Source: an uncultured Pirellulales bacterium (lineage in GTDB: Bacteria; Planctomycetota; Phycisphaerae; Sedimentisphaerales; Anaerobacaceae). From it: a stretch of 64,000 nucleotides of DNA. Under the pieces are notes generated by a model that saw only the letters and a list, made by a program, of their open reading frames with translations, was not told the origin of the DNA and searched no databases. Shown one piece after another: positions 3,148 through 55,972 of the stretch. The position numbers and the translations under genes are program-made. How positions within the stretch are numbered: the stretch's first letter is position 1; each line of letters starts with the position of its first letter. The stretch is from contig CAZDQP010000001.1 in NCBI GenBank assembly GCA_964507485.1, positions 753 to 64,752 of the forward strand. Reading direction: 5' to 3'.

Positions 3148-3161
3148 CAGGAGTTAAGAAA

Positions 3162-3275: not shown

Positions 3276-3290
3276 ATCACTTGGCTCACC
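3268..3290 (+). repeat. IS terminal inverted repeat (left)
   Basis: GGCAATGAATCACTTGGCTCACC, 21/23 identical to the copy at 8822-8844. Confidence 0.75.
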
Positions 3291-3328
3291 AAAAAAAGGC
3301 AAACAGATATGAGTAAAATGTGGATAAC

Positions 3329-3460
3329 TTATTTTTTGGACTTGCGGCGTTTCTTACGCTCTGCCTGTTCTTTAGCTATTTTTGCATTGACGATTTCTTT
3401 AGGCACAGCGACAAGTTTGCGTGCAAGTTCGTTGAATTTACCCAATCCTTTAGGCTTCAT
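3329..3460 (-). CDS. small basic ORF (43 aa) downstream of the transposase
   Basis: AAGGAG RBS 6 nt upstream of the ATG. Product is MKPKGLGKFNELARKLVAVPKEIV... Too short to appear in the ORF track. Confidence 0.4.
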   Translation of the reverse strand: MKPKGLGKFNELARKLVAVPKEIVNAKIAKEQAERKKRRKSKK

Positions 3461-3470
3461 ATTAGCTCCT

Positions 3471-4421
3471 TTATTCTTTTCCCATGAATCCAGCATCATC
3501 AATACCAGCGAGAAACCGATAAGTCAAACGCTTATTGAAAACCATACACAACAAAAACTCAAAACGGACACTATCAGTCCATTCCCGCATATTGAATCTG
3601 AATACCTGTTCGGCGACATAACGGAAAAGGTGATATGGTTCGACACTAACATAAGTTCCCTTAATTGCTCTTTTGAGCAGAGTCCAGAAATTCTCGATAC
3701 CGTTTGTGTGGACAATCCCATCAACATAGGCTTTAGAATGGTCAACAGCCCTGTGAGCGTGACTATTGATAAGCCTGTCGTATTCTCTGGCTTCATCGGT
3801 GAAAACTTCCGCACCATATTTTACAGACGATTTGACGCGGGCAAGGGATGTTTCTTCATCGTCGCGATTGACAACTTTGGCATTTACCTTGCTCGTTTCG
3901 ACTCTTTGCAGGATACCATGAACCGGTGTTTTGCCGACCGAGCCGCGTCCTTGAATGAGCTTTTCTCGGCGTTTGGTGTGCATATTCCTTGCCTGTCCGC
4001 CGATGTAGGTTGTATCGGCTTCAACAGGGCCGTCAAACTTCTCAGATTCGCATTCCATAGCTTTGCGGATACGATGAAGCATGAACCATGCCGTTCTTTG
4101 AGTGACGCCGATAGCCCGACTAAGCTCATGGCTGCTGATACCGTTCTTGCAGTTGGCGATTGCCCATACAGCGACAAACCATTTATCAAGTCCGAGGGGG
4201 CTATCCTCAAAGATTGTGCCGACTTTGGAGCTAAACTGTTTGCGGCAATCCTTACAACGGAGCATCCGGCGTGTTTTGATTTCGCCGATTCTCTTGCTTC
4301 CACAATTAGGGCAAACGGGTGGGTTGCCAGCCCAGCGGATTTCCCGCATATAGTTCTCACAAATATCGGGGTCTGCAAAGTATCGGGCGGCTTGCAAAAG
4401 TGTTTTGGGTGTTTTCATCAT
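3471..4421 (-). CDS. IS1595-family transposase
   Basis: N-terminal zinc ribbon CPNCGS...CKDCRKQFS, followed by a DDE-type body typical of IS1595/ISXO2-like transposases. Confidence 0.85.
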   Translation of the reverse strand: MMKTPKTLLQAARYFADPDICENYMREIRWAGNPPVCPNCGSKRIGEIKTRRMLRCKDCRKQFSSKVGTIFEDSPLGLDKWFVAVWAIANCKNGISSHELSRAIGVTQRTAWFMLHRIRKAMECESEKFDGPVEADTTYIGGQARNMHTKRREKLIQGRGSVGKTPVHGILQRVETSKVNAKVVNRDDEETSLARVKSSVKYGAEVFTDEAREYDRLINSHAHRAVDHSKAYVDGIVHTNGIENFWTLLKRAIKGTYVSVEPYHLFRYVAEQVFRFNMREWTDSVRFEFLLCMVFNKRLTYRFLAGIDDAGFMGKE

Positions 4422-4476
4422 CTACTCCTTGTTAATAACCTGTGTAAAACTAACTTCATTCTATCTATATATACGC

Positions 4477-4499
4477 GGTGAGTCAAGTACAAAATCAAA
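4477..4499 (-). repeat. degenerate IR-like copy
   Basis: GGTGAGTCAAGTAC... 11 of the 12 innermost positions match the IR and the outer half is diverged. Overlaps the methylase start. Confidence 0.4.
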
Positions 4500-5338
4500 A
4501 AAACATGATAAATTTACCAAAAAACCAAATAATTTGCGGAAATTGCGTAGAAATAATGGAGCAATGGCCTAACGATTGTTTGGATTTAACAGTAACTTCT
4601 CCACCATACGATGAATTAAGAGACTATAAAGGTTATCATTTTGATTTTGAGGGTATTGCCAAACAGCTATACAGAATAACAAAAAATGGTGTTGTTGTTG
4701 TTTGGGTGGTTGGGGACCAAGTAATAAACGGGAGTGAAAGCGGTACGAGCTTCAAGCAAGCATTATTTTTTAAGGAATGCGGTTTTAATCTACACGACAC
4801 GATGATTTATGAGAAAAACGGAGCATTGCCGGATAATTGCCGTTATTTTCAAATTTTCGAGTATATGTTTGTTTTGAGTAAGGGCCGGCCCAAAACAGTA
4901 AACTTCATAGAAGATAGAAAAAACCGATTCAAAGAGCGGTGGGGCAAAGGTCGTTGTGTAAGAGAAAAAGATGGGTCCCTTACGCCGAGAGACGAATGGA
5001 AGGGCAGGGAATACGGACGCCGAAATAATATTTGGAGATATAGTACAGGGGCAGGATATAGTTCAAAAGAGAAAGTAGCTTTTGAGCATCCAGCTACGTT
5101 TCCAGAGCTATTAGCACACGACCATATCAAGAGTTGGAGTAATTCCGGTGATATTGTTCTCGATTGTATGTGTGGAAGCGGTACAACCTGCAAAAGAGCG
5201 AAAATGTTAGGCCGCTGTTACATCGGCATAGATATAAGCCCTGAATATTGCAAATTATCAGAAGAACGGATTAAAGCGGTTATTACTGGCGTTTCTGTTA
5301 AAGAGGCCCGACAGGGCCAGAAAGCGTTATTTGAATGA
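4478..5338 (+). CDS. DNA methyltransferase (beta-class N4-C/N6-A type)
   Basis: Motif IV TSPPY lies near the N-terminus and motif I VLDCMCGSGTT near the C-terminus. GTG start at 4478, alternative ATG at 4505. Confidence 0.85.
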   Translation: MSQVQNQKNMINLPKNQIICGNCVEIMEQWPNDCLDLTVTSPPYDELRDYKGYHFDFEGIAKQLYRITKNGVVVVWVVGDQVINGSESGTSFKQALFFKECGFNLHDTMIYEKNGALPDNCRYFQIFEYMFVLSKGRPKTVNFIEDRKNRFKERWGKGRCVREKDGSLTPRDEWKGREYGRRNNIWRYSTGAGYSSKEKVAFEHPATFPELLAHDHIKSWSNSGDIVLDCMCGSGTTCKRAKMLGRCYIGIDISPEYCKLSEERIKAVITGVSVKEARQGQKALFE

Positions 5339-5341
5339 AAA

Positions 5342-5818
5342 ATGGTGAGCCAAGTGATTCAATACCATTACAAGAAATTAAGATGTTATCATTGGTATGC
5401 AGTCAAAAACAAAAGGACATACTACGCAGAACGATACGTCCGCATAATAAACAATAAACAAATAAGCATATTTATGCACAGAGAAATTTTAGGGCTTAAA
5501 TACAAAGATGGAAAAGTATCTGACCATATTAACGGTAATGGCTTAGACAACAGACGTTCTAATTTGCGGGTGTGTACTGCGTCTCAGAATGCATGGAACA
5601 GGCGAAGTAATAGTAAATGTGGATATAGAGGTGTGCGAAAGTTTTTTCATAGGTGGCAAGCAAGAATACAAGTTAATAGGAAGTGCAGGCATTTGGGTAT
5701 GTATGCTACCGCCATAGAAGCAGCTAAGGCATATGATAAAGCGGCCAAGAAACAATACGGTAAGTTTGCTTGTACTAATTTTTGTGCCGCTATCAAGGCA
5801 AAGGAGAAAGCCGAATGA
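5342..5818 (+). CDS. HNH-AP2 endonuclease with an IS-derived N-terminus
   Basis: Paralog of 1657-2130 (DHINGNGLDNRRSNLRVC...YRGV...AAKAYDKAAKKQYGKFACTNF). It lacks about 17 N-terminal residues. The first 8 codons are encoded by the IR. Confidence 0.75.
   Translation: MVSQVIQYHYKKLRCYHWYAVKNKRTYYAERYVRIINNKQISIFMHREILGLKYKDGKVSDHINGNGLDNRRSNLRVCTASQNAWNRRSNSKCGYRGVRKFFHRWQARIQVNRKCRHLGMYATAIEAAKAYDKAAKKQYGKFACTNFCAAIKAKEKAE
5344..5366 (-). repeat. IS terminal inverted repeat (right)
   Basis: GGTGAGCCAAGTGATTCAATACC. Its reverse complement is 23/23 identical to 8822-8844. Confidence 0.75.
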
Positions 5819-6051
5819 GTAAAAAAGTTGGTCCAACTAAAACAAAATCATATCTTATCTGTGCCAAATGTAAATATTTGGATTTTTGGTGTGGTATGTG
5901 CCAATGCTATGCAAGATGCAAACATCCAAAGTATAAAAAAAGAAAAACCGGCGAAAGAAATATAGGAACTTATGATAGAGGCAATGACAGGGGTGTACCC
6001 ACGCCAAAATGGTGTCCAATTATAAAACAGGAGACTTCCGATGGAAGATAA
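5815..6051 (+). CDS. small Cys-rich protein
   Basis: ATGA overlap with the upstream stop codon. Several CxxC motifs. Confidence 0.4.
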   Translation: MSKKVGPTKTKSYLICAKCKYLDFWCGMCQCYARCKHPKYKKRKTGERNIGTYDRGNDRGVPTPKWCPIIKQETSDGR

Positions 6052-6844
6052 AATAAAACAAGCGATAGAAATGCTGGAAAAAGCAAAACTGAATATAGAA
6101 TATGCCCGTGACTATTATCCAAAAGCGGATACGAAGATAAGCGAATTAAGACAATTAAACATAGCTATTGAATTTCTTGGTCAAGCTCTTGCCCTTCTCT
6201 CCAACTGTCAAGCCAAGCCGGAGTGCGAGACTTGCGAGTGGATATCAGTTAATGATAGATTGCCAAAAAGAGGTATGCAAGTTTTTATGATAGATGCTGA
6301 TACAGGTTATGCTTATGTGGGATGGATGGATGAGCCAAAAAACTGGTGGTATTTTACGGCAGATAAAGAGAAAAGTTTTCCATCAGATAATGGCAAAGAA
6401 ATAACACACTGGATGTCTGTAATTCCTCCCGACTGTCAAGGCAAGCCAGAGCAGCCGGAGAGTGAATTATGGAAAGAATGGAGTCGATTAAATTCAAGTG
6501 ATTGTTCAGATAGGGAGTGGATTGTTAATGCGGAAAAATTAATACCTATAATACTTAGAAAGCTCGAAGCCGCAGAGCGAGAGAATACTATACTCACAGG
6601 GCATATAATGGACGCTGACAACAAAGCACAGCAGCAGGCAGAGAGAATATCGCAGTTGGAGGATATATTCAATAAAATCGAGAATTGGTGTAAAGCATAT
6701 CCGATTGATATTTTTCCAAAACCAGATTTGAAAAAAGCACACACAGTATTGGAATCTGCTGGAATGACTCTTGACGCTATTACCGCTGATGCTATGCGCC
6801 ATGTGACCGACGGAATTAAAGATTTAATCGAAAAGAAAGGCTAA
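6041..6844 (+). CDS. DUF551-domain phage protein
   Basis: WISVNDRLPKRG...GWMDEPKNWWYF...EITHWMSVIPP matches the DUF551 pattern. C-terminal half looks coiled-coil. Confidence 0.55.
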   Translation: MEDKIKQAIEMLEKAKLNIEYARDYYPKADTKISELRQLNIAIEFLGQALALLSNCQAKPECETCEWISVNDRLPKRGMQVFMIDADTGYAYVGWMDEPKNWWYFTADKEKSFPSDNGKEITHWMSVIPPDCQGKPEQPESELWKEWSRLNSSDCSDREWIVNAEKLIPIILRKLEAAERENTILTGHIMDADNKAQQQAERISQLEDIFNKIENWCKAYPIDIFPKPDLKKAHTVLESAGMTLDAITADAMRHVTDGIKDLIEKKG

Positions 6845-27748: not shown

Positions 27749-28480
27749 ATGGCTATGTCCTGTAGCGAGTTGATTGACGAAATACAGGCGCGATGCGGTC
27801 GGCCTGATACGACCGACCTTATCGATACTACCTGGCTTACCAGAAGAATCAATGAAGCCCAGAAGATTATTATCGAAGAAGTACCACTTATCCCTTCTGT
27901 TACTTTTCACAACAGAGACTCAATAGATACGACCGGAACAACCAAATATGCGATAAACGAAATATCCGTAGGCGACAGTACGACAGCCAATTTTCCATGC
28001 AATATAACCGATGTATGGTATCTCGACGGAAATGAGAGTAAGAAACTCGTATTTAAGCCTGTTGATGAATACGACAGACTGTATCCCGACCCTACTCATT
28101 CGGACGCTAATAGAGAAAAACCCGTTCACTGGACTTTGAGAGATAACGGATATATTGAAATTGCTCCTCTGTGCGCAAGCGGATACTGGGACAATGACCT
28201 TAAAATAACAGGTGATTTCTATGCGGCGGATTTCACTACGGACAGCACTTCCTTAAGCGATATAAGCCGTGCAGACGAGGGGCTTATCCTTTACGGTGTA
28301 TGGAAATCGTGGCAGGCCATAGGCTCCGCCAATCCCTCAGTAGTTTCAGAGATAAGAAACGCAAAAAAAATGTGGTCAAACCCATATCCGGCCACTGGCG
28401 AAACTCTCGGATGGCTCGAGAGTTTCGGCGATAAAATAAATAGTATGGTTCAGTGGAACGATAATTTTTATGAGGATTAA
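27749..28480 (+). CDS. hypothetical structural-module protein
   Basis: 243-aa ORF with a GGAGAAAG RBS. Confidence 0.5.
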   Translation: MAMSCSELIDEIQARCGRPDTTDLIDTTWLTRRINEAQKIIIEEVPLIPSVTFHNRDSIDTTGTTKYAINEISVGDSTTANFPCNITDVWYLDGNESKKLVFKPVDEYDRLYPDPTHSDANREKPVHWTLRDNGYIEIAPLCASGYWDNDLKITGDFYAADFTTDSTSLSDISRADEGLILYGVWKSWQAIGSANPSVVSEIRNAKKMWSNPYPATGETLGWLESFGDKINSMVQWNDNFYED

Positions 28481-29309
28481 AATAATCGCAGAAACGGGGG
28501 CTGCGCACAGGAAAAGCTATTCGAGATGCCTTGCTATGATAGATGCCGCAAGACAATGCGGCGCCGATGCTATAAAATTCTCGGCCTATAAAGCCGACGA
28601 AATGACTATTGACAGTAATAAAGAGCCTTTCGTTATCAAATCCGAGCCATGGAAAGGAATGAGCCTTTATTCGATTTATGACAGTATTGCCATTCCATAT
28701 CACTGGCTGAATGACCTTAAAAGAGCAACGATGGCCGCCGGGATGGAATTTATTTTAAGCGTCTATCATCCTAATACCGTCGAAATTCTGGGGCAGTTGG
28801 GAGTAAAAACCGTCAAAATAGCCTCTTTTGAGTTAAACTATACCGAATTATTGAAAAGTTTAGCTAACGACCCGAAAGTTTATAATATTCTTCTCAGTAC
28901 CGGGGGGGCTACTGAGAAAGAGATAGATAAAGCCTCTGATATACTCAAATATAAAGACCTTACTTTGCTTCATTGTATCTCCAAATATCCTGCAAAACCG
29001 GAAGAAATGAATCTTGTAATGCTGGATAATATGAAGAAGTTCGGCTTCAAGGTCGGTCTTTCCAATCATTCAAGAATTCTAACTGTTCCGGTCATGGCCG
29101 TTACTATGGGTGCTACTGTCCTGGAACAACACTTAAAGCTGGATGATGATAATCTGGACGCTTCTTTTGCGCTGTTTCCAGACGCTTTTAAGGCCGTTGT
29201 CGATGTTTGCAGAAAAACAGAAGCCATATTGGGGACGGTCGATTATAGCCAGCCAAAAACTTTCCACAGAAAAGAAATTAACGGTAAATGGGTTCGAGCG
29301 GTATGGTAG
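28470..29309 (+). CDS. NeuB/PseI/LegI-type nonulosonic acid synthase (no SAF domain)
   Basis: IIAETGAAH...GADAIKFSAYKAD...VKIASFEL...ILLSTGGAT..EI...LLHCISKYPA...GLSNHS...GATVLEQH is colinear with the NeuB TIM barrel. Confidence 0.75.
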   Translation: MRIKIIAETGAAHRKSYSRCLAMIDAARQCGADAIKFSAYKADEMTIDSNKEPFVIKSEPWKGMSLYSIYDSIAIPYHWLNDLKRATMAAGMEFILSVYHPNTVEILGQLGVKTVKIASFELNYTELLKSLANDPKVYNILLSTGGATEKEIDKASDILKYKDLTLLHCISKYPAKPEEMNLVMLDNMKKFGFKVGLSNHSRILTVPVMAVTMGATVLEQHLKLDDDNLDASFALFPDAFKAVVDVCRKTEAILGTVDYSQPKTFHRKEINGKWVRAVW

Positions 29310-29614: not shown

Positions 29615-29991
29615 AATGTGATTTAAATTGTCCGGCAACGGGGTCAATATTTCTTGGCAGGTTCTGTTGTCATAATTGCTCTGCCGCAAGAAAATATTAT
29701 GTCAAAGAATCGAATAAACATTTGTGGAACGAAGAAAAAGGATTTTTCGAAGAAGGTAAAGGTTGCAGACTGTCAAGAGCAGAAATGCCGCAGGAGTGCA
29801 AGGAATACGATTGCCATAAGAAATCATTTTATATTTGTGAATTAAAATACTCCCAGCTTGTATGGAATGAAAAATGGGTTAAGAAAAAACCTGTTACTTT
29901 ATTTGTAAGAGGTGAAGTAAACGAAGGTCATTTTGATAATTTGTTTGAACAGATGAAAAAAGATATTGCAAGGTTTAGTAAAAATGAATGA
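29611..29991 (+). CDS. Cys-rich protein, paralog 2
   Basis: CDLNCP...CCHNCSAARKYYVKESNKHLW...GCRLSRAEMPQECKEYDC. Confidence 0.5.
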   Translation: MKCDLNCPATGSIFLGRFCCHNCSAARKYYVKESNKHLWNEEKGFFEEGKGCRLSRAEMPQECKEYDCHKKSFYICELKYSQLVWNEKWVKKKPVTLFVRGEVNEGHFDNLFEQMKKDIARFSKNE

Positions 29992-30835
29992 TAAGACAAT
30001 CCTGATAACCGGCGGGACTGGAAGTTTAGGGCAGGCGATAATTGAGAAAATCAGTCGGAACTACAACCCCAAAAAGGTTATTATTTATAGTAGAAATGAG
30101 TATAATCAGCACTTAATATCTAAAAAATACTCCCATATACCTTGGCTTAGATTCCGTATCGGCGACGTTAGAGACAAAGAAAGACTTGCTTGGTGCTGTG
30201 ATAAAGTTGACTATCTGATACACGCCGCCGCATTAAAGCATATCCGAATATGTGAAGAAAATCCTTTAGAGGCTATACAGACCAATATAATCGGCAGCTC
30301 TAATGTAATAGACGCCTGTGTAAAAAACAGGGTACAAAAAGCAGTTCTTGTAAGTACGGACAAAAGCCCAAAGGCCGAGAATCTTTACGGTGCGACAAAA
30401 TTCACAGCCGAAAAACTGTTTGAATCTGCGAATATCTACGGAAGAACAATCTTCAGAATAATCCGATATGGCAATGTAATCGGCTCCCATGGCTCAGTTA
30501 TCGAATATTTCCTCAAACTAAAAAAAGAGGGAATACATAAATTTCCTATTACAGATCCGCAATGTACCCGGTTCTGGATAACACTGAATCAGGCCGCAAA
30601 AGCAGTTATAGAACATTTGTTAAAAGAGAATACCGAAACTTTGTTCATTCCAAAATTACCGTCAATGAAGATAACCGATATGGCAAGGGCAATAGACCCC
30701 GACTGCACTTTCGAATTTATCGGTATTAAAAAAGGCGAGCGTCTGCATGAGGAATTGGCTGAAGGATACACTTCAGACACGAATGACTGGTGGCTTAAAA
30801 AAGAAGAATTTAGAGAATTATTAAAAATATCTTAA
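29984..30835 (+). CDS. UDP-sugar 4,6-dehydratase (PseB/CapD-type SDR)
   Basis: KTILITGGTGSLG, IGDVRD, YLIHAAALKHIRICEENPLEAIQTNIIG, LVSTDKSP...NLYGATK. Confidence 0.8.
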   Translation: MNDKTILITGGTGSLGQAIIEKISRNYNPKKVIIYSRNEYNQHLISKKYSHIPWLRFRIGDVRDKERLAWCCDKVDYLIHAAALKHIRICEENPLEAIQTNIIGSSNVIDACVKNRVQKAVLVSTDKSPKAENLYGATKFTAEKLFESANIYGRTIFRIIRYGNVIGSHGSVIEYFLKLKKEGIHKFPITDPQCTRFWITLNQAAKAVIEHLLKENTETLFIPKLPSMKITDMARAIDPDCTFEFIGIKKGERLHEELAEGYTSDTNDWWLKKEEFRELLKIS

Positions 30836-30982: not shown

Positions 30983-31918
30983 ATGATTTCTCAATTTATG
31001 AAAGATGTTCGAGAGGAAAAAAACGGGTTCAGTTTCGGCAAAGTGTTTCGATTTGATGAAGAAAGTGTTGTCGCTATATTACCAATTATCAGAGAAAGCC
31101 AAGTCGAACGAGATTATATTGTTTTGCCAGAAGCTAAAGACGTAAAAATTGAAGATACTGGTGATATTGATAAAGCAAAAATTACTAATAATGGTGATAA
31201 ACCCGTTTATATTAGAAGCGGAACTGTTTTAAAAGGCTCTACTCAGGAAAGAGCTTCTGTTATCAGCAGAATTATCTTCCCGAACCAAACGAAACAAATC
31301 AAAGTCGTTTGCGTTCATCAAACCAAAGGCATATCAATAGGCGCAAAAATGGATTATTCCGGTCTAACGCCTTCTTCAATAAGCCTTGGTTCTCAACAGG
31401 CTACTTGGAATAGCGTTAATAAATATACCTGTTGTGCCCGTAACTCTTTTTCGTCTTCGGCTCCGGATTTATCTTCAAATATTGGAGGAACTTTTTTTGT
31501 AAGTCCCACTGATGATTTGCACTCCTATATGAAAGATTATTCCAAAAAAATTGAAAAAATTTTATCGAAGATAGAATACAAAAAGAATCAAACCGGAATG
31601 GCTTTGTTCGATGTGGAAGGTGTTTTTTTGATAGAGATATTTGATTTAACCGGTTCTTGGAAAGCTATACGTGATGATGTTATTTCAAGAGAGGGGGAAA
31701 ATATCATAAAGAAGGATTTGCAGGGTATTTTTCAGTTGAAACCTGAAAGGGCGAATGAATTGGTAATTAATATTCTCAATGAAAATTATAAAGAAAAAGA
31801 ATTACATAAAAATCAGAGTTCAACTTATGCTTTGGAAGGTGACAAATATATCGGCGAGACAACGATTTTGAATCAAAAAGTTATTCACTTTAGTTTAATG
31901 AGAAAAAGTAAGAATTAA
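30983..31918 (+). CDS. ARPP-1/DUF6569-like protein (tentative)
   Basis: The motif order VAILPI...YIVLPEA...VKIEDTG...ITNNGDKPVYIRSGTVLKGSTQER...IKVVCVHQTKGI...KVIHFSL matches my memory of that family. AAGGAG RBS. Confidence 0.4.
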   Translation: MISQFMKDVREEKNGFSFGKVFRFDEESVVAILPIIRESQVERDYIVLPEAKDVKIEDTGDIDKAKITNNGDKPVYIRSGTVLKGSTQERASVISRIIFPNQTKQIKVVCVHQTKGISIGAKMDYSGLTPSSISLGSQQATWNSVNKYTCCARNSFSSSAPDLSSNIGGTFFVSPTDDLHSYMKDYSKKIEKILSKIEYKKNQTGMALFDVEGVFLIEIFDLTGSWKAIRDDVISREGENIIKKDLQGIFQLKPERANELVINILNENYKEKELHKNQSSTYALEGDKYIGETTILNQKVIHFSLMRKSKN

Positions 31919-32922: not shown

Positions 32923-34314
32923 ATGAATTTTCGACACACAAAAACCTTGATACCTGATGGAGTCCAAACTCTTAGCAAACGTCCCTGCTGTTATGTCGAG
33001 GACGTATATCCTGATTACCTTGTACGGGGAAATGGTTCCTATGTATGGGACTTAAAGGACAAAAGATATATAGATTATCATTCAGCTTTAGGCGCGATAA
33101 TTCTCGGCATAAACAACCAGAAGGTATCCGATGCCGTATGTAACCAGATGAGAGAGGGGAATCTGTTTTCGTTATCTCACCCGAAAGAAACGGAACTCGC
33201 TGAACTGATGAGAGAGACATTTCCTTCCATGCAGGTTATGAGATTCGTCAAGACCGGGTCAGAGGCATGTTCCGCCGCCATTAAAGTTGCAAGGGCATAT
33301 ACTGAGAGGGAAGCAGTGATAACCTGCGGATATCACGGCTGGCATGAATGGTATAACTGCACTACACCCAAAAATGCAGGTTCTTATCCACAACCTGTTT
33401 ATCCGGTCGAATGGGGCAATTTGGAAAAGCTGAAAGAATTGTTAGAAACTAAAAAACCGGCGGCCTTTATTACTGAGCCATATATATACGCAGATGAAAA
33501 AGAGGTTGAAAAGTGGCTGAAAGAGTCCCGCAAGCTGTGTGTTCAGAACAAAGCACTTTTCATATTGGATGAAAATGTAACCGGATTCAGAACTACTAAG
33601 TTGGGCGCCCAAAATCACTGGAAAGTCAAGCCTGACCTTTCCGTGTTCGGCAAATCTATGGGTAACGGAGTGCCCATTGCCTGTTTTGGTGGCCTGGATG
33701 ATATCATGGGCGTATTGAAGAAGGATTGTTTTGTCTCAAGTACCTTCGGGGGAGATTTACTTGGTATAGTTGCAGCCATTGAGACAATAAAACTCCTGAA
33801 ATCTAAGCCTATAATCCATCATATATGGACTATGGGTTCCAAGCTTAAAACAGGTTTTAATCAAAGCGCAGAAGCAGCTATGAAAGAGAGCATAAGATGT
33901 GTCGGGCTTCCGCCGAGAACGCATTTCCTGTTCCCGAGCGCAGAACATAAAAGCCTTTTCTGGCAGGAATGTCTCGACCAGGGAATATTCTTCGGACACA
34001 ATAACTTCGTAACTGCCGAACATTCGATAATAGATATCGATACTACACTCTCCGTGATAAGACATGCCATGAAAATACTTCTGAAGAACTGGGACGCACC
34101 CATGAAGGCTTTGAGAGGGAAAGTCGCCATTGAAACGCTGCGAATGGTCACTGTGCCTGCGCCGAATAAGAAAAAAGAAACGGCCAAGGATATAATTGAA
34201 AAGGCTGACCAGCAGGCGGAAGAAATAAAAACCGATAAACAAAAAAGAACGTCACCACCTCTCTGTAAAAAATGCGGTAATAAACACTGGCCAATGCACA
34301 AATGTAAAGTGTAA
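32923..34314 (+). CDS. class-III (GSA-like) PLP aminotransferase with Lys-rich zinc-knuckle tail
   Basis: YHGWHEW, ILDENVTGFR, FGKSMGNG (PLP Lys) and SSTFGGD motifs. The C-terminal roughly 60 aa are basic and end in CKKCGNKHWPMHKC. Confidence 0.75.
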   Translation: MNFRHTKTLIPDGVQTLSKRPCCYVEDVYPDYLVRGNGSYVWDLKDKRYIDYHSALGAIILGINNQKVSDAVCNQMREGNLFSLSHPKETELAELMRETFPSMQVMRFVKTGSEACSAAIKVARAYTEREAVITCGYHGWHEWYNCTTPKNAGSYPQPVYPVEWGNLEKLKELLETKKPAAFITEPYIYADEKEVEKWLKESRKLCVQNKALFILDENVTGFRTTKLGAQNHWKVKPDLSVFGKSMGNGVPIACFGGLDDIMGVLKKDCFVSSTFGGDLLGIVAAIETIKLLKSKPIIHHIWTMGSKLKTGFNQSAEAAMKESIRCVGLPPRTHFLFPSAEHKSLFWQECLDQGIFFGHNNFVTAEHSIIDIDTTLSVIRHAMKILLKNWDAPMKALRGKVAIETLRMVTVPAPNKKKETAKDIIEKADQQAEEIKTDKQKRTSPPLCKKCGNKHWPMHKCKV

Positions 34315-46358: not shown

Positions 46359-49300
46359 ATGGCAAATTGGCAAGAAGCTACATTACTGGATGAGCCTAAA
46401 AATAAATGGCAGGATGCGCCTTTATTCGAGGAAGAAAAAAGGCCGAAATATGAAGAAGCGGAATTGGTTGGTCCGCCTTTATCTCTTGCACAGCCAGAAG
46501 CTATATTAAGACATCAGATGCCGGAACCACCAGCAGTCGAGGGAATAAAACCTATTTTAGACAGGAATGAACCTATTCCACCTAAATTCAAGTCTGCCGA
46601 ACCTATGAAACTTAATGCCGGTAAACCTTCAGACATAAAATTATCTAAGCCTGAAGACTGGAAATATTTTTCTCCTATCGAGAAGTTTACCTGGTCTATA
46701 GATAACAGTGATATTAATACTGGAATAGAAGACGGATTTGCGAAAATTAAATATATATCTACAAGATTCGGTAAGCAACTCGCAAATTCCTGGGCAAGGG
46801 CAGGTGAAGGAATAATATCCCATCCTTTAAGTCCTATTGGAATTCGACAGGCCGAAATAGACAAATATTTACCACAGGCATGGAAAGAACTCGAAGATTC
46901 CGGATTTAAGGGTTCGGCAAGCGAAAAAGCTATTCTTGCAAGACAACGCGCATCAGAAATAGCTGCGTCAGTCAAAGTGCCTAAATTTCAAGTTAATCCA
47001 AGAGCTAATGCAACGGAATTTCTAACAGATGTATCTGCCGGACTAACAGGATTTATAACTCAATTAGGCTTATTAAGATGGATTATGCCTACCGGAACCC
47101 CTGAACCTGTTATATGGGAGATGCAAAATCAGGCTACAGGCGGCGCGCCAGGAGAAGGTGCCGCTATGCGAATGACTTTAGGACAGATTGGTAGAATTCC
47201 TACTACAAAGTTAAGCGGCAAGGCACTTAAAGTAATGCTCGAATCCGGGCTTTTCGGTGGTTATACATATTTATCTGGCGGTGATTTGGAAGAGGTAGTT
47301 GTTTCAAGCCTGATTCCGGTGGCGTTTAATACTTATAACTTCGCGCAGCAAAAGAGATATATAGCTAAAACTACGGACGAGTGGTATTCGAAGATAAAAG
47401 AAGTAGACCAAAGGCGCGTATCACTTGCAAATAGAAGGTATGATAGAGCTGTATCTAACGCTAAAAAATTAACTTCTTTAGATGCACAGAAAAAAGCTCT
47501 CGATGCCGCTTTAAGGCAGAAAACTCTTGATTTAAGAAATTCCAATCAATTACTTGAATCTGATATGCGCAAACTTGGAAGGGCGTTAGATGTAGCTAAA
47601 AGACAGATTTACAGTGATGACGCCTTTGCACCGGCAAGAGAGAAATGGCTGAATGAACGTCAAAAAGCAATGAAGATGATTGAAAAGGGCGGCAAATCCG
47701 CTGAGGCAGGAAGAAGGGTTCTGGACTTCCTTGAAAGCAAGCAAATCGCGCCTCCCGCGGTTATGCCGAAAGATGTTGTCGGTATTCCTGCTTTTGAAGT
47801 CAGGCTTGCCAATCTTGAGGATTCTATCCGCAAGGCCGCCGGTATTGAAACTGAAAAGCATATATCAACCGGATTTACCGAAGACCCGACAGAGGAAGGC
47901 CCGGCAGTGGGAGAGCCGGGATTTGTTGGAATAGCAGGTCGTCCCGGCGGCAAAGTCAAAAAGCCCTGGTTAAATCTTGAAAGAACTAAATCACCCGATA
48001 ATGACATTGAAGATTTTTTTGGCAGGACAAAGAGACCGCCTTACAAGAAAAAAGTCAGTGGAATACTTGAAAAAATATATGTTGGATTAAGGGAACGTTT
48101 TGAGTTTGCTATGCACATACCCAAAACAAAGGAAAATGCTATTTACATAGATATAATCAGAACTATGCCGGAAGAACGCAGGGCGGCGATAGAAAGAGCC
48201 ATACTTCACATTCTGGCTGTTCTCGACGGTGATGGTACTGTTCAGGCCCTTGATTCAGCCGGTCTCGACCTTTTAAGGCGTAAAGTATTTATTCAGGATT
48301 TGTTATATGAATCAACTATAGACAGGTCTGTTTCGGGAAATCTCGAACACGAAAAACTCGAATTGGAGAATAAAAGGCTTGATGAACTGATAGACAGAAT
48401 TCCGTCAGTAAAAAAAGCACATCAGGCAAGACAAAAACTTTGGAGGTCGGTCAGTGAGGATTTACTTGAAAGAGGGGTTCTTGACGAAAAAGCAGCGAAG
48501 AACCAGGCGTATGTAAGGCACTTTGTACTTGACTTGGCTGAAAAGAACAGGCCTACCGGATTCTTGAGGAAAAAACTATCTGCTCCTTATAGGGGTTATT
48601 CGAAGCGAAGAAAAGGTTCGAAAAGAGATATATCAACAGATTATCTCGAAGTTGAAACTCGTGCTCTTGCAGATATATATGCGGATAATGCCGTGGAAGA
48701 TGCGGCTAATAGAATAGCGGAATTAGCGAACAAAAGAAAGTTGTATGCGCAAAAGGCAAAGGCTGAGAATTTTGAAAACTTGGTAGGGGGTTCGGAAGTC
48801 GTTGAAAGGATTGAAGAACTGCGTTCGCTTATAAGAGAATCAAGAGAGAATCCGGACACAGAACAAAAGAAACTTCGCAAAGCATGGATAGAGGAACTTA
48901 CTGAGATTGACCCGACTTACCCATATCGGAAACGAATCGCTATGAATATGAGCAGGTTCAAAAGTCTTAAATATCTCGGCGGCGATATGGATATACAAGA
49001 AGATTCGGCATTATTCAAAGAATTATCTCGTGCTGCGAAGGAACAAGCCAAAGAGCCTGAAGGATTGGCCGCAAGGGGTATCTTTAAGGCAATGGCCGAA
49101 AAGGAAAAAATGATACATCAGGCACTTGGTGCCGGATATGTAACACCTGAAAAAGCCGCTTTAAGAGAAGGCTATACAGAATGGTTTTATAAAAGACCGA
49201 ATTTATTTTATCGTGCCCAGACTGTTACTCAGGCTCAGATGGCGGCCTTTGTCGAAAACGCTGCCGACGAAGCGGCCAAAATGCTTAATATACCTGTAGA

Positions 49301-50867
49301 AAAACTCCATGAAGCTTTGGTTCTCGGCAGAAGAAAGGGCTGGATTATACCAGACTACCTTGCAAAACAGTTGGATGATTTGCCGGTCAACAAAAGAAGC
49401 GGATATATAATAAGGTCATCCACGAAACCATTCGTCCAATTCTGGAAACGATGGATACTTAGATATCATCCCTTAAGATATAATGCCAGGAATTTAGTGG
49501 GGGATTCTGAAAGATTCTGGGCAAGTGGGCAGGAAAAAGCTTTGGGAGAAATAACACGTGCTGTAAAAATGCTCATTAAAAAGGATGAGTATTATAAGAT
49601 AATGAAGGAATATGGCGTTATCGGTTCCTCATTATGGCATGAGATGAACGATGTTTCAAAATTAAAGGAATTCGAAAGATTCAAAGATTTTTCAAAGCCT
49701 AAAAATTTCAAAACTGCGACTAAAAGAGCATTTCTTGGGCCGTTAAAACTTGTTTCAAGGACGGGAAGCTCAATACAGGATTTGACTCAGTTCAGGGAGG
49801 ATATATTACGTGCTGCTGTTTTTATTTATAATTATGAACAGTTACAAAAAGGTAATAAAGTAAGACATTGGGCTGGCAAAATAGCAGAGATAGAGGAAAT
49901 CGCCAAGATTAACAAGGCGAGAGCTGCCGCTAAAATATCAAGAGAAACGCTCGGTGACTATGGCAAATTTACTCCCTTTGAAAATGATGTGCTGCGTCAG
50001 GGTATAATGCCATTTTATTCTTGGTTCAAAATCAATACATTGTTCTGGCCGCACGTTGTTCTTGAGGCGTCCAAGGCTGAGGGAATCAGTGGTACGGGTA
50101 AAAGGGGAATTAAAGTCGCAGCTATTGCAGCACCGAGAGTGGCAGTAAATCTTACAAGATGGCTTGTAAGAACTCTATTTGTATATGCAGCTATGTATTG
50201 GTGGAATCACCGGGACGAAGAAGCAGAGAATAAAGAAGCCTCATTACCGTTCTGGCTGAGGTCAATGCCTCATGTAAATGTCAATGATTATACTTTATGG
50301 GGACAAACGGCGCTAAGCGATTTTACTGAATGGCTTGATATGAAAAGGCTTGCAGGTGTCCAATGGCGCAGAGATGCCGGATTTCTTGACTGGAAAGAGG
50401 CTGCTTTGGAAGCATCAAGAATAATTGCGGAATCGCCTGTAAATAAAGTATATCAGACATTCAATCCCTTTATGAAGGCGCCCATAACTGCCATTACCGG
50501 CATGGAAACTTATCCGAGTGTATTCCGGCCAAGACAAGTCGCCCCAGAGGCAAGTCAAAAATCTCTTGAACGTGCTATGCTTGGAATTATGGGTTCTGAT
50601 GCAAAAAGGTTCCACCAAAGTCTTACAGGAAAAAGAGCTTTTGAAGATACTTTATATGCTTATTTCGCCGGTTGGTTTGCAAGGCCTTCCGATGTTGATA
50701 CTTTTATTAATGATGTTAAAAAGACAAAAGAATGGACTACGCTGAAACGCAGTTCTAAATCTACAGGTCGATGGCCGGGAGAGGCGAAAAAGGGAAAGGA
50801 GGAAGAATATCAGGAAGCGAAAATAAGAACCGAAGCATTGAAGAAACGTGTTTTGATAGAAAAATAA
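46359..50867 (+). CDS. very large (1502 aa) virion-associated protein (internal/ejection type?)
   Basis: Longest ORF in the window, helical and basic. No enzymatic motif recognised. Confidence 0.55.
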   Translation: MANWQEATLLDEPKNKWQDAPLFEEEKRPKYEEAELVGPPLSLAQPEAILRHQMPEPPAVEGIKPILDRNEPIPPKFKSAEPMKLNAGKPSDIKLSKPEDWKYFSPIEKFTWSIDNSDINTGIEDGFAKIKYISTRFGKQLANSWARAGEGIISHPLSPIGIRQAEIDKYLPQAWKELEDSGFKGSASEKAILARQRASEIAASVKVPKFQVNPRANATEFLTDVSAGLTGFITQLGLLRWIMPTGTPEPVIWEMQNQATGGAPGEGAAMRMTLGQIGRIPTTKLSGKALKVMLESGLFGGYTYLSGGDLEEVVVSSLIPVAFNTYNFAQQKRYIAKTTDEWYSKIKEVDQRRVSLANRRYDRAVSNAKKLTSLDAQKKALDAALRQKTLDLRNSNQLLESDMRKLGRALDVAKRQIYSDDAFAPAREKWLNERQKAMKMIEKGGKSAEAGRRVLDFLESKQIAPPAVMPKDVVGIPAFEVRLANLEDSIRKAAGIETEKHISTGFTEDPTEEGPAVGEPGFVGIAGRPGGKVKKPWLNLERTKSPDNDIEDFFGRTKRPPYKKKVSGILEKIYVGLRERFEFAMHIPKTKENAIYIDIIRTMPEERRAAIERAILHILAVLDGDGTVQALDSAGLDLLRRKVFIQDLLYESTIDRSVSGNLEHEKLELENKRLDELIDRIPSVKKAHQARQKLWRSVSEDLLERGVLDEKAAKNQAYVRHFVLDLAEKNRPTGFLRKKLSAPYRGYSKRRKGSKRDISTDYLEVETRALADIYADNAVEDAANRIAELANKRKLYAQKAKAENFENLVGGSEVVERIEELRSLIRESRENPDTEQKKLRKAWIEELTEIDPTYPYRKRIAMNMSRFKSLKYLGGDMDIQEDSALFKELSRAAKEQAKEPEGLAARGIFKAMAEKEKMIHQALGAGYVTPEKAALREGYTEWFYKRPNLFYRAQTVTQAQMAAFVENAADEAAKMLNIPVEKLHEALVLGRRKGWIIPDYLAKQLDDLPVNKRSGYIIRSSTKPFVQFWKRWILRYHPLRYNARNLVGDSERFWASGQEKALGEITRAVKMLIKKDEYYKIMKEYGVIGSSLWHEMNDVSKLKEFERFKDFSKPKNFKTATKRAFLGPLKLVSRTGSSIQDLTQFREDILRAAVFIYNYEQLQKGNKVRHWAGKIAEIEEIAKINKARAAAKISRETLGDYGKFTPFENDVLRQGIMPFYSWFKINTLFWPHVVLEASKAEGISGTGKRGIKVAAIAAPRVAVNLTRWLVRTLFVYAAMYWWNHRDEEAENKEASLPFWLRSMPHVNVNDYTLWGQTALSDFTEWLDMKRLAGVQWRRDAGFLDWKEAALEASRIIAESPVNKVYQTFNPFMKAPITAITGMETYPSVFRPRQVAPEASQKSLERAMLGIMGSDAKRFHQSLTGKRAFEDTLYAYFAGWFARPSDVDTFINDVKKTKEWTTLKRSSKSTGRWPGEAKKGKEEEYQEAKIRTEALKKRVLIEK

Positions 50868-53683: not shown

Positions 53684-53711
53684 TTGACAATGTAATATTT
53701 TGTTTTATAAT
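53684..53711 (+). promoter_or_regulatory. consensus sigma70 promoter
   Basis: TTGACA, 16-nt spacer, TATAAT. Confidence 0.65.
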
Positions 53712-53764
53712 GTAAGAAGAAAATGACGATAAATAAATAATGGAGATATGAGTAAGGTTCACGG

Positions 53765-53992
53765 ATGGCGAAAAAGAAAGAACAAAAAAAAGTGAAAAGG
53801 ACAGCAAAGGTAGTAATGCTTAATTCAGACAGGGCACTTGACAGAGAAGCAGTAAAACATTTGGCGGCATTGCGTGATGCTGTGCCTGGATTATCTGAAT
53901 TAACAGATACAATGCGTTGGTTGTGCGAGAATGAAGTTCCTCTAATTATTGAGAAATATCAGAAAATGACCAAGGGATTGAAGGCAAGCTAA
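53765..53992 (+). CDS. hypothetical small basic protein
   Basis: 75 aa, first gene after the promoter. Confidence 0.45.
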   Translation: MAKKKEQKKVKRTAKVVMLNSDRALDREAVKHLAALRDAVPGLSELTDTMRWLCENEVPLIIEKYQKMTKGLKAS

Positions 53993-54020
53993 GGCAGGGC
54001 GGCTAAATTAAGGAGAATAA

Positions 54021-55328
54021 ATGGCAAGCATAAATACTAAAACAAGAGCACCGAAAACACATGAAGGAGCTATTGCTGCTCATATAAATTCAGAACAGCA
54101 ATTAAGACGTTCTGTAATGGCTTGTATGCTTTGGGAAGATCAATTCTATGAGGATGGTGTATCTATTGCGGATAGAATTGCACATTTAATATCTCTGATA
54201 GATAGCAGGATAGTATCTGAAATAGCTGCCGAGGCAAGGCATAAAATGAAGTTACGTCATGTTCCTCTGCTATTGGCTGTAGAATTAGCGAGAAAAGGCA
54301 AATTGAAAGCTAATATACTTGATGAAATTATACAACGCCCTGACGAACTAACAGAATTTCTTGCTATTTACTGGAGAAAAGGCCGTTGTCCTTTATCAAA
54401 ACAAGTCAAGCTCGGATTGGCTCAGGCATTTCCTAAATTCGATGCTTATCAGCTTGGCAAATACAACCGTGATAAGGCAATAAAATTAAAAGATGTATTA
54501 TTTCTTTGTCATGCGAAACCAAAAGATAATGAGCAAGCCGGAGTGTGGAAAAAACTAATAGATGGCAGTCTTGAGTCTCCTGATACATGGGAAGTCAATC
54601 TATCTTCCGGCAAGGACAAAAAGCAGACATGGACTAAATTACTTGCTGAAAACAAACTTGGTGGAATGGCATTACTTAGAAATCTTCGGAATATGGCTGA
54701 TGTGAATGTTGATGAAAAATTAATAATTCAAGGTCTTGCAAATATGAATGTTTCCCGAATATTACCGTTCAGATTTATCGCTGCTGCTCGGTATGCTCCG
54801 CAATGGGAAAGTCATATAGAAAAGGCCATGTTTAAATCATTATCCGAAGCTCAAAAATTCAAAGGCAAAACTATTCTTTTGCTTGATGTGTCAGGCTCGA
54901 TGGATTGGGATAGATTGTCAGGCAAATCAGATATGAGAAGACTTGATGCTGCCTGTGGTGTCGGTATCTGCGCAAGAGATATGTGCGAGCAGATAGCAGT
55001 TTATACCTTCAGTAATGAATGTGTAAGAGTGCCTGATAGACGTGGTTTTGCTCTGAGAGATGCAATAACGAATAGTCAGCAACATGGTGGAACCTATCTT
55101 GCCGGTGCAATAGATACAATTAATCGAAAAGAAACTTACGATAGAATTATTGTTGTTACCGATGAACAAAGCCATGACTCTATAAAGAATCCAAATGGTA
55201 GAGGATATGTCATAAATGTAGCCTCTTATCAAAATGGCGTTGGTTATGGTAAATGGTTGCACATAGATGGATGGAGTGAATCTGTCCTAAAATATATTCA
55301 AGAATACGAATGTTCTTTTGAAAATTAA
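54021..55328 (+). CDS. rsr: Ro60-related protein (TROVE + vWA domains)
   Basis: LRRSVMACMLWEDQFYEDG in a TROVE-like N-terminal region, and a C-terminal vWA with LLLDVSGSMDW. Followed by Y-RNA-like genes. Confidence 0.8.
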   Translation: MASINTKTRAPKTHEGAIAAHINSEQQLRRSVMACMLWEDQFYEDGVSIADRIAHLISLIDSRIVSEIAAEARHKMKLRHVPLLLAVELARKGKLKANILDEIIQRPDELTEFLAIYWRKGRCPLSKQVKLGLAQAFPKFDAYQLGKYNRDKAIKLKDVLFLCHAKPKDNEQAGVWKKLIDGSLESPDTWEVNLSSGKDKKQTWTKLLAENKLGGMALLRNLRNMADVNVDEKLIIQGLANMNVSRILPFRFIAAARYAPQWESHIEKAMFKSLSEAQKFKGKTILLLDVSGSMDWDRLSGKSDMRRLDAACGVGICARDMCEQIAVYTFSNECVRVPDRRGFALRDAITNSQQHGGTYLAGAIDTINRKETYDRIIVVTDEQSHDSIKNPNGRGYVINVASYQNGVGYGKWLHIDGWSESVLKYIQEYECSFEN

Positions 55329-55336
55329 AAGCGAAT

Positions 55337-55478
55337 AAAGCAAGTGGCGTAGATTACAGCTACTTCGCTTTGGGAGCCGGATGTCACAGGTTCGAGTCCT
55401 GTCTCTGTCCCGAATGGACAGAGTAGCTCAGTTGGTAGAGCGCCGTTAACGTACTGTTATCGCCTGTTCCCTTGCTTT
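55337..55478 (+). ncRNA. yrlA: YrlA-like Y RNA with tRNA-like domain
   Basis: Closing helix AAAGCAAG/CTTGCTTT. Internal T-arm (ACAGG TTCGAGT CCTGT), an acceptor stem capped by a CGAAT loop, and TA plus D-arm GCTC AGTTGGTA GAGC. Confidence 0.7.
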
Positions 55479-55489
55479 GTTCATAAAAT

Positions 55490-55557
55490 TGCAGGTGGCG
55501 AAGATGGGAGTTACTTCGCTTAAAACGACCAATACTCTTATCGCTTGTTCCCCTGCA
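55490..55557 (+). ncRNA. short Y-RNA-like paralog (YrlB-like)
   Basis: Closing helix TGCAGG/CCTGCA, hairpin GGCGAAG/CTTCGCT, and conserved box TTATCGCTTGTTCC. Confidence 0.5.
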
Positions 55558-55564
55558 TTAAACT

Positions 55565-55633
55565 TGTGCGTGGTGAAGGCTGGAGCTACTTCGCTGTTAA
55601 CGAAACCGTGCTCCTGTCGCTTGTTCCCGCACA
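55565..55633 (+). ncRNA. short Y-RNA-like paralog (YrlB-like)
   Basis: Closing helix TGTGCG/CGCACA, hairpin GGTGAAG/CTTCGCT, and box CTGTCGCTTGTTCC, followed by TTATTTT. Confidence 0.5.
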
Positions 55634-55657
55634 TTATTTTAACCGGAGAGAAGCTAA

Positions 55658-55855
55658 ATGGAAATTCCATTAAATCGCATGATTGAAGTCAGGCATAAAT
55701 ACGACAGAAGATTTAAGTTCTGGATTTGTGCTGATGATTTTAGCGACCCTGTTTTTTGTAAAGGAATAAGTGATAGCAGAGAATTTCCACGAGAGGTTTT
55801 AGAGTTCATCAATATTGACGACCCTGCAAAAATAGCAAAATCGCAGGCATCCTAA
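55658..55855 (+). CDS. hypothetical protein
   Basis: 65-aa ORF with a GGAGAG RBS. Confidence 0.4.
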   Translation: MEIPLNRMIEVRHKYDRRFKFWICADDFSDPVFCKGISDSREFPREVLEFINIDDPAKIAKSQAS

Positions 55856-55913: not shown

Positions 55914-55953
55914 GCGCCCGGGTTATGTTCTGTGATGAGGCCAGCCCGGGCGC
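55914..55953. repeat. GC-rich hairpin, copy 2
   Basis: GCGCCCGGG (55914-55922) pairs with CCCGGGCGC (55945-55953), then AGCTTTT. Its loop segment TGATGAGGCC pairs with GGCCTCATCA at 55871-55880. Confidence 0.7.
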
Positions 55954-55972
55954 AGCTTTTATAGGTGAAGAT

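Follow-up and report, generated by a model that had tools for sequence, protein, structure and literature searches.

A putative phage-borne Ro60–Y RNA module: a short Ro60-type gene followed by three tandem Y-RNA-like units

Genes and signals at the locus

We analysed a 64-kb stretch of DNA (contig CAZDQP010000001.1, positions 753 to 64,752 of the forward strand), hereafter the window, and describe in it a module in which a gene for a Ro60/Rsr-type protein is followed, on the same strand, by three tandem units with the architecture of bacterial Y RNAs. Judged by its gene content, the window is phage DNA, and the module is a compact example of its kind, with one promoter, one Ro60 gene and three RNAs lying within 2 kb. 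We consider it highly probable that the locus encodes a Ro60–Y RNA ribonucleoprotein (RNP). The features of the locus are given below, with the basis of each assignment in brackets (ORF, open reading frame; aa, amino acids; nt, nucleotides; bp, base pairs; R1 and R2, covariance models, and A2, an alignment, all three described with the RNA units).

53684-53711, + strand: predicted sigma-70-type promoter, TTGACA (53684-53689)-N16-TATAAT (53706-53711), 12 of 12 positions matching (promoter scan)
53765-53992, + strand: orf75, a small ORF rich in lysine that separates the promoter from the Ro60 gene (no Pfam family)
54021-55328, + strand: Ro60/Rsr-type gene, 435 aa, with a TROVE HEAT-repeat region and a C-terminal vWA domain (ORF, Pfam, PHROG, PDB and AF2 model)
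54885-54902, + strand: MIDAS motif DVSGSM, residues 289-294 (read from the sequence)
55337-55478, + strand: putative Y RNA unit 1, YrlA-type, 142 nt (R1, R2 and Rfam YrlA)
55490-55557, + strand: putative Y RNA unit 2, short, YrlB-like, 68 nt (R2, fold z and covariation in A2)
55565-55633, + strand: putative Y RNA unit 3, short, YrlB-like, 69 nt (R2, fold z and covariation in A2)
55658-55855, + strand: orf65, a small ORF beginning 24 nt past unit 3 (no Pfam family)
55914-55962, + strand: candidate operon terminator, a G+C-rich stem of 11 bp that contains an internal hairpin, then AGCUUUUAU (fold energy)

The TTGACA-N16-TATAAT promoter, correctly read in the initial annotation of this DNA, is the sole perfect match on both strands of the 64 kb, where 0.09 matches are expected and 8 of 100 shuffled sequences contained at least one. 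That annotation had placed the module under its own promoter; the promoter does exist, upstream of the rsr operon (orf75, rsr, the three RNAs and orf65, in this order), but the RNAs have none of their own. On the + strand, no promoter-like site was found from position 54331 to the RNAs, so that these would be made within the rsr transcript and cut out of it. In Mycobacterium smegmatis, YrlA and YrlB are processed from a common precursor (PMC4201824).

The two small ORFs, orf75 and orf65, gave no match when searched by tblastn as conserved partners in the related loci (L001-L182), and orf65 is probably co-transcribed with the module. No hairpin directly follows unit 3. Further downstream, the hairpin at 55914-55962 folds with -33.8 kcal/mol (z = -3.8; none of 200 shuffled sequences folds as well) and was missed by a simple terminator scan because its loop is long; provided that the neighbouring YopX gene starts at the ATG at 55973, this hairpin may be the terminator. 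Taken as a set, these signals suggest that the operon may be co-transcribed, processed and terminated there.

The Ro60-type protein

The ORF at 54021-55328 is preceded by AAGGAG (54010-54015), and its 435-aa product matches the Pfam TROVE family (PF05731) with 63.2 bits (cut-off 23) and falls into phrog_850 of PHROGs, an 'RNA-binding protein' family, with E 7e-47. The pattern DxSxS...T...D of a MIDAS is present in the C-terminal vWA domain. In the DVSGSM motif, to which the initial annotation had drawn attention, none of D289, S291, G292, S293 and M294 varies among 38 homologues, nor does D381, and T358 is nearly invariant among these 38 closer homologues.

By sequence, the closest entries of the PDB are 9l5y and 9kop ('TROVE domain-containing protein'), which align over the full length with ~23% identity (E 2.7e-25) and which the Foldseek output identifies as Thermus phage phiLo Ro60. 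The family profile reaches the same two entries with E 6e-52 and extends to human and Xenopus Ro60 and to Deinococcus radiodurans Rsr (9nen, 1yvp and 2nvo) with E 1e-11 to 1e-13. The AlphaFold (AF2) model of the protein (pLDDT 82, pTM 0.68) has the ring-shaped HEAT-repeat plus vWA fold, with an alpha/beta domain from residue 280. When this model was compared with the PDB by Foldseek, all 13 best matches were Ro60 proteins (among them 9kop, 9l5y, 9nep, 1yvp, 2nvo, 2i91, 1yvr and 9nen), with TM 0.60-0.70 over the whole chain, and the next matches were isolated vWA domains with E >= 1e-3. On these sequence and model comparisons the window protein is a Ro60 orthologue, as the layout of the ORF had initially been read, and belongs to a short (~435 aa), phiRo60-like clade that is distinct from the classical Rsr of ~530 aa.

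This short TROVE clade comprises at least 8000 database proteins, the best 120 of which are each 61-77% identical to the window protein. A member is present in 98 cultured or assembled phages, including the Xanthomonas phages Tenjo and Tabio, Brevundimonas and Caulobacter jumbo phages, Ralstonia phage RsoM2USA, crAss-like phages, Rhizobium phages and actinophages, and chromosomal members occur in Acidobacteriota, Bradyrhizobium, Caulobacterales and Clostridia.

The three RNA units

Chen et al. 2014 (PMC4201824) define YrlA RNAs by a Ro60 gene close by on the same strand, a 5' signature, GNCGAAN0-1G, a conserved YUAY with which the variable-arm (V) hairpin begins, and T- and D-arm-like stem-loops with an acceptor-like stem-loop between them; in the species studied there is also another Y RNA, YrlB or Yrn2, which is shorter (PMC4201824). 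At our locus, the first of the three tandem units starts 8 nt past the Ro60 stop codon, and all three lie on the strand of the Ro60 gene and within a few kb of it. Their terminal stems fall exactly on the unit boundaries proposed in the initial annotation, and the linkers between them (11 and 7 nt) are AU-rich and conserved.

Unit 1 is closed by an 8-bp terminal stem, AAAGCAAG/CUUGCUUU (55337-55478), and has ...UAUCGCCUGUUCC as its 3' strand. The motif GGCGUAG (55346-55352) is followed by the V/anticodon-like hairpin (55364-55380), the T arm ACAGG-UUCGAGU-CCUGU (55386-55402), a closed acceptor-like hairpin of 8 bp (55403-55423) with U8-A9 after it, and the D arm GCUC-AGUUGGUA-GAGC (55426-55441). 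Only this unit has a tRNA-like domain, units 2 and 3 ending at the V hairpin. Unit 2 has the terminal stem UGCAGG/CCUGCA, an exact GGCGAAG and the apical hairpin UCG-CUUAAAA-CGA, and unit 3 the terminal stem UGUGCG/CGCACA, GGUGAAG and the apical hairpin UUCG-CUGUUAA-CGAA; folded as single sequences, they reach z = -3.7 and z = -2.5, respectively. Unit 2 matches the published GNCGAAN0-1G signature exactly and units 1 and 3 are one change away from it. Within the family, no other variants of the motif are as frequent as GGCGUAG, GGCGAAG and GGUGAAG, with 20, 45 and 39 of 143, and YUAY is present as CUAC, UUAC and CUAC in units 1, 2 and 3.

Two other pairings were considered and rejected. The minimum-free-energy fold of unit 1 as a single sequence, which pairs GGGAGC with the 3' UGUUCCC, is unsupported by the comparative data, and a local hairpin between GCGAAG and the conserved CUUCGC was discarded, as variants with GUAG keep CUUC and crAss-like units without GAAG keep UACUUC.

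Standard annotation is silent here: Rfam at its gathering threshold reported nothing in the window and ARAGORN called no tRNA anywhere in it, two results that, taken alone, would wrongly imply that there are no RNA genes at this locus. Nevertheless, the Rfam YrlA model (RF02553) aligns with unit 1 at 55378-55446 (model positions 23-86) with 40 bits and E 8.6e-7, below the gathering score of 69, and covers the closing stem, the T arm, the acceptor-like hairpin and the D arm, in agreement with the tRNA-like module that the initial annotation had recognised in the first unit.

For a comparative analysis we gathered 178 related loci from viral, metagenome and genome collections, and a simple motif scan found repeated units beside most of their TROVE genes. 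An alignment of 40 short units from at least 30 loci (A2) yielded a structure of four helices, namely a 6-bp terminal stem, a GGYG/YGCY helix that is followed by a bulged AAG, a 7-bp helix and an apical hairpin. Its internal loop carries U on the 5' side and a conserved UGUUCC on the 3' side, and an invariant UACUUC lies between the 7-bp helix and the apical hairpin. In this alignment 90.7% of the cells pair, a share that drops to 33-47% on sliding the partners, and the covariation score of 0.602 (0.227 in shuffles) was reached by none of 500 shuffles. Six pairs are altered on both sides in helix 1, and as many in helix 3, and covariation backs the terminal stem and the GGYG/YGCY helix.

Two covariance models were built from the related loci. 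R1, derived from A2, had no unit 1 in its training set and still finds it with 45.2 bits (E 3e-10), placing a 72-nt insertion at the apex. R2, made from 114 units of bacterial genome loci without any sequence of the window, gives exactly three matches on both strands of the 64 kb, which are the three units (E 1e-15 to 1e-12), with 56.9 bits for unit 1, 68.7 bits for unit 2 (E 1.2e-15) and 63.0 bits for unit 3 (E 3.4e-14). The count of three Y-RNA-like genes, one of YrlA type and two without a tRNA-like domain, is the one first suggested for this DNA. Unit 1 aligns with 36 long units of other loci, ~135-140 nt in length and with the same order of elements. The Rfam YrlA model matches the long units in 9 of 10 related loci with 35-48 bits, in some over the full model, but the gathering score of 69 was reached in none of 20 related loci, Bradyrhizobium and Acidobacteriota chromosomes included, which means that the Y RNAs of the TROVE clade are missed by standard annotation. 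By their architecture, the RNAs are YrlA/YrlB-like and form a subfamily that lies outside the curated boundary of Rfam. As an RNA of YrlA type, unit 1 would be expected to be stable, to be bound by Rsr and to bear tRNA-type modifications.

We also noticed that UACUUC, after helix 3, and UGUUCC, on the 3' side of the internal loop, are near-invariant across the subfamily, even in crAss-like members that have no GAAG. Since neither covaries with anything, it is more likely that they are protein-contact or tertiary elements; the papers on Y RNAs that we read mention YUAY but neither of these two motifs.

Linkage of the RNA units to the TROVE gene

Among the related loci, R1 gave 181 matches (E <= 1e-3) in 96 viral/metagenome loci and 114 (E <= 1e-6) in 80 genome loci, and all 295 matches, in 176 loci, lie on the strand of the TROVE gene. 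At least one unit is present in 77 of the 96 viral/metagenome loci (~80%), most of the others being truncated upstream. The arrays in these 77 loci contain one (22 loci), two (19), three (24), four (11) or five (1) units, three being the commonest number, and multi-unit arrays are the norm for the short TROVE clade. The RNAs precede the TROVE gene in 72 loci, and a minority carry them downstream, as the window does (L001, L003, which is the same as L070, L004 and L015).

An orthologous module is present in L001, an IMG/VR contig whose TROVE protein is 62% identical to that of the window and which carries the same three-unit array. From the end of the gene through unit 3, AU-rich linkers included, the two loci are 81% identical in nucleotide sequence, with compensatory changes in helix 3, in the T stem and in the acceptor-like stem, and the similarity is lost directly after unit 3. 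Unit 1 of the window is orthologous to positions 4368-4505 of L001. A perfect promoter match is found in L001 too: TTGACA-N17-TATAAT, extended by TG, lies 44 nt ahead of the TROVE start and is itself preceded by a terminator. As read from these sequences, the conserved module consists of the promoter, the Ro60 gene and the three RNAs, and excludes orf75 and orf65 because neither has a counterpart in other loci. The Ro60-fold protein and the three RNAs of Y architecture are inherited together as a unit.

These data bear on whether the 'RNAs' are functional genes at all. An integrase gene is encoded 1.4 kb downstream, ARAGORN and the Rfam gathering threshold are silent, and mechanically predicted ORFs overlap the RNA region (55477-55686 on the + strand and 55446-55670 on the - strand), so one might see in the units a degenerate tRNA gene, an attP remnant or part of a small ORF. 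We regard this as very improbable: all 295 model matches in the 176 loci are on the same strand as TROVE, in loci with and without a neighbouring integrase, base pairs are preserved by covariation, the stems of the window and of L001 differ by compensatory changes, with the similarity ending at the last stem, and the overlapping ORFs have no conserved counterpart.

Some related phage loci, crAss-like ones included, carry units that are circularly permuted relative to YrlA (L003 4661-4788, L014 ~4594-4735 and 4759-4893, and L015 4432-4560). These resemble tRNAs in shape: the acceptor ends are open, a D arm, a hairpin like that of the anticodon and a T arm can be recognised, and the entire Ro-binding stem forms a closed hairpin at position 26, after the D arm and before the anticodon arm. 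The Rfam tRNA model spans them with 32-43 bits over 128-135 nt and ARAGORN calls none; in the papers that we read we found no description of this permuted tRNA-shaped form. Two of the loci with a downstream array have further RNA elements. In L004 (the IMG/VR phage contig 3300020583_000158, the same as L018), a bacterial class A RNase P RNA (positions 47-368, 148.8 bits) is followed by 25 tRNA genes (375-6749), among which the TROVE gene and the Y RNA units are embedded, and in L015, a phage contig of ~97 kb, a Pistol ribozyme (4998-5058, 57.9 bits, gathering 34.5) lies ~250 nt downstream of the Y RNA array.

Apical hairpins of the RNA units

In all three units of the window the apical loop has 7 nt and follows the pattern YU-NNN-RA (UUUGGGA, CUUAAAA and CUGUUAA), and the central triplets, each different (UGG, UAA and GUU in units 1-3), come after the invariant UACUUC. 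Loops of 7 nt dominate the family (91, against 17 in shuffled controls), and their consensus, C-U-N-N-N-R-A with 40 different central triplets, is the pattern of an anticodon loop. We therefore weighed a reading in which Ro60 would hold mimics of tRNAs or anticodon stem-loops as an anti-defence platform and would not act on PNPase. As decoys, the RNAs would soak up host anticodon nucleases or tRNA-directed toxins; as a repair aid, they would present damaged tRNA or rRNA to a host RNA ligase. The near-complete permuted tRNA of unit 1 would suit such a role, and the ROT/TROVE proteins of jumbo phages have been discussed among RNA-repair systems with a tRNA-like partner (PMC7824862). We judge this reading unlikely, however. 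The initial annotation was right that RtcB and RtcA neighbours are lacking, and neither these nor Rnl or polynucleotide kinase domains were found in the 26 window ORFs scanned against Pfam; none of these repair genes adjoins the homologues in cellular genomes. The apical hairpin is read in the literature as the variable arm, not as the anticodon arm (PMC4201824), the loop statistics are drawn from phylogenetically related loci, and no anticodon nuclease is known for the host.

The broader idea that the Y RNA arrays of the short TROVE clade are repertoires of anticodon-stem-loop mimics seems to us a little less probable still, and functional mimicry read from a loop pattern is speculative, the counts coming from related sequences. 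If it were true, the Ro60-held RNAs would be decoys or sensors for anticodon-loop readers, such as nucleases, toxins and modification enzymes, and the composition of an array would be tuned to the threats that the phage or the cell meets.

Phage setting

By their PHROG matches, ORFs of the window encode a large terminase, portal, major head and virion structural proteins, and an integrase. The window also has the recombination genes YqaJ and ERF and codes for a DNA methylase and a DUF5131 protein. This gene set is in line with the phage setting assumed initially. The module lies at the end of the structural block, and its neighbours are an S-adenosylmethionine (SAM) methyltransferase on the opposite strand, YopX and the integrase that is 1.4 kb downstream of the RNA units. 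No PNPase is encoded among the window ORFs scanned. The locus gave no match by blastn against 50,697 phage records, which points to a phage to which no cultured one is closely related. Its terminase shares 28% identity with the enzyme of Roseobacter phage CRP-7, and the capsid protein has relatives in metagenomes only.

Who benefits from the module is a question separate from that of the molecular machine. As lysogenic-conversion cargo (a 'moron'), the same RNP would be made by the prophage and would help the lysogen rather than phage replication, for instance, as with cellular Rsr, in stress or UV survival and rRNA quality control. The consensus promoter, the terminator-like hairpin and the site at the end of the structural block, near an integrase, would suit such cargo, as would the bracketing of the L001 module by an upstream terminator and its own perfect promoter, and the same TROVE clade with its RNA arrays is found in ordinary chromosomal contexts (Acidobacteriota, Bradyrhizobium and Clostridia). 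On the other hand, strictly lytic phages (crAss-like, jumbo and Xanthomonas phages) also carry the clade, the TROVE gene is an early infection gene in crAss001 (PMC8375218), and lysogeny of the window phage is deduced from the presence of the integrase alone. We hold this role possible, though rather doubtful.

Beyond the module, we noticed a sugar-biosynthesis block within the phage (28470-34314), which looks like a nonulosonic-acid pathway and comprises the following genes.

28470-29309: NeuB
29966-30835: PseB-like Polysacc_synt_2/epimerase
30983-31918: ARPP-1 domain protein
32923-34314: aminotransferase

The G+C content rises to 0.45-0.50 across ~14-28 kb, just ahead of this block. After the virion structural genes, a 1502-aa ORF (46359-50867) matches no PHROG family at E <= 1e-5.

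Proposed function

We propose that the sigma-70-type promoter drives one transcript that includes orf75, the short Ro60 gene, the three Y RNAs and orf65, from which the three RNAs, separated by the AU-rich linkers, would be cut out. In each RNA the 5' and 3' ends are paired, followed by the internal loop with UGUUCC and a GGYG/YGCY helix of 4-5 bp that carries the bulged GG(C/U)G(A/U)AG; after it come the covarying 7-bp helix, UACUUC and the apical hairpin. The GG(C/U)G(A/U)AG motif is the published Ro-binding signature. Proteins of the Ro60 type hold Y RNA on the outside of the ring and misfolded RNA in the hole at its centre, and Ro60 of the window would bind the stem-bulge-stem and stabilise the RNAs. 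In unit 1 the hallmark of YrlA is added, a tRNA-like domain in circularly permuted order with the T arm, a closed acceptor stem and the D arm. The effector end of the RNAs, which in unit 1 would be this domain, would recruit a host protein, and the Y RNAs would tether Ro60 to this factor, most likely the 3'-5' exoribonuclease PNPase, by analogy with Deinococcus, Salmonella and phiLo. As an outcome, host RNA decay would be redirected or attenuated during infection or lysogeny.

The analogy is drawn from three systems. In D. radiodurans and Salmonella, Ro60 and PNPase are joined by a Y RNA, which makes PNPase specialised for structured RNA (PMC4201824). In phage phiLo, phiRo60 binds two phage Y-like RNAs through a stem with a CGAA bulge, and with either Yrl1 or Yrl2 forms ternary complexes with the host PNPase, which is slowed by ~70-76% in vitro (PMC12135203). 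Transferred to the window, Ro binding, the PNPase partner and a benefit for the phage are what these systems lead us to expect.

Several points weigh against this proposal. On the protein side, the profile search recommended in the initial annotation recovered TROVE clearly but left the vWA models below threshold (VWA_2 24.2 bits, cut-off 27, and vWA_Ro60 21.5 bits, cut-off 27.7, at residues 284-386), and only four of the eight basic RNA-contact residues of phiRo60 correspond to K or R here (K130, K152, K157 and K166), in an alignment of 23% identity. On the RNA side, the recommended covariance search with the Rfam YrlA model likewise succeeded in part: the tRNA-like part of unit 1 is found at E 8.6e-7, but it alone aligns and its 40 bits stay under the threshold of 69. 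A C-C mismatch interrupts the V hairpin of unit 1, and units 1 and 3 are each one position off CGAA (CGUA and UGAA), single substitutions that in phiLo Yrl2 lower the affinity 3-4-fold (PMC12135203). PNPase enters the model as effector by pure analogy, and its effect differs between the systems, since the decay of structured RNA is enhanced in Deinococcus, whereas decay is attenuated in phiLo (PMC12135203).

Having weighed these points, we still think it likely that the locus is a phage-borne Ro60–Y RNA RNP module. The identity of the partner is a more tentative matter, and we put the analogy-based case for host PNPase slightly short of an even chance.

Comparison with known systems

Phage genes for Ro-like proteins came to light with the genomes of mycobacteriophages. 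YrlA-like RNAs were described beside Ro60 in 22 phages in 2014 (PMC4201824), ROT/TROVE proteins with a tRNA-like partner were noted in jumbo phages (PMC7824862), and the phiLo system was solved and characterised biochemically in 2025 (PMC12135203). The novelty implied by the initial annotation was therefore overstated: phage Ro60 with adjacent Y RNAs had been published (PMC4201824, PMC12135203, PMC12282133) and arrays of several units are usual. The window adds a tidy member with the less common downstream layout. Comparative work is more useful here than a single locus, as it shows the short Ro60 clade almost always together with same-strand arrays of one to five Y RNAs, both in phages that infect many different hosts and in Acidobacteriota, Alphaproteobacteria and Clostridia, and a covariance model for the subfamily would fill the annotation gap in Rfam.

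The closest known system is that of phiLo. Its phiRo60 (9kop, 9l5y) is likewise phage-encoded, belongs to the same short clade and is the best Foldseek match of the window protein (TM 0.65-0.68), and both loci have adjacent Y-like RNAs with a stem-bulge-stem and a CGAA-type motif, and no RtcB. They differ in that phiLo has two RNAs upstream of the gene, whereas the window has three downstream, and in that no tRNA-like domain was reported for Yrl1 and Yrl2, whereas unit 1 has one. RNA and PNPase binding were shown biochemically in phiLo and are predictions for the window module.

Listeria phage CKA15 (P100-like) encodes an Rsr-like protein, CKA15_055, and three highly transcribed non-coding RNA (ncRNA) regions (PMC12282133). 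These lie within 2 kb on the same strand and were proposed to be Y RNAs, a likeness that we draw from their description. In CKA15, the RNAs are upstream of the gene, their identity as Y RNAs is a suggestion and the phage is lytic; in the window, they are downstream.

With the YrlA/YrlB RNAs of Salmonella Typhimurium and M. smegmatis, and with the YrlA-like RNAs of mycobacteriophages, the window units share a same-strand Ro60 gene, the motif, YUAY and the order of the arms; as in the YrlA/YrlB systems, there is a second, shorter Y RNA without a full tRNA-like domain. The classical YrlA/YrlB partner is, however, an Rsr of ~530 aa, in contrast to the 435-aa member of the short clade found here, and the window subfamily differs from classical YrlA by the additional conserved UACUUC and UGUUCC. 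Compared with the enteric rsr-yrlBA-rtcBA operon, the window module has no rtcBA and no sigma-54/RtcR control, its promoter being of the sigma-70 type.

The Rsr-Yrn1-PNPase complex of D. radiodurans (RYPER; 2nvo) shares with the window the Ro60 ring fold (Foldseek E 4e-13, TM 0.61) and a Y RNA that combines a Ro-binding stem with a tRNA-like effector domain. Only the C-terminal half of D. radiodurans Rsr is detectable by sequence and Yrn1 is organised differently, but RYPER provides a model for what the module of the window may do.

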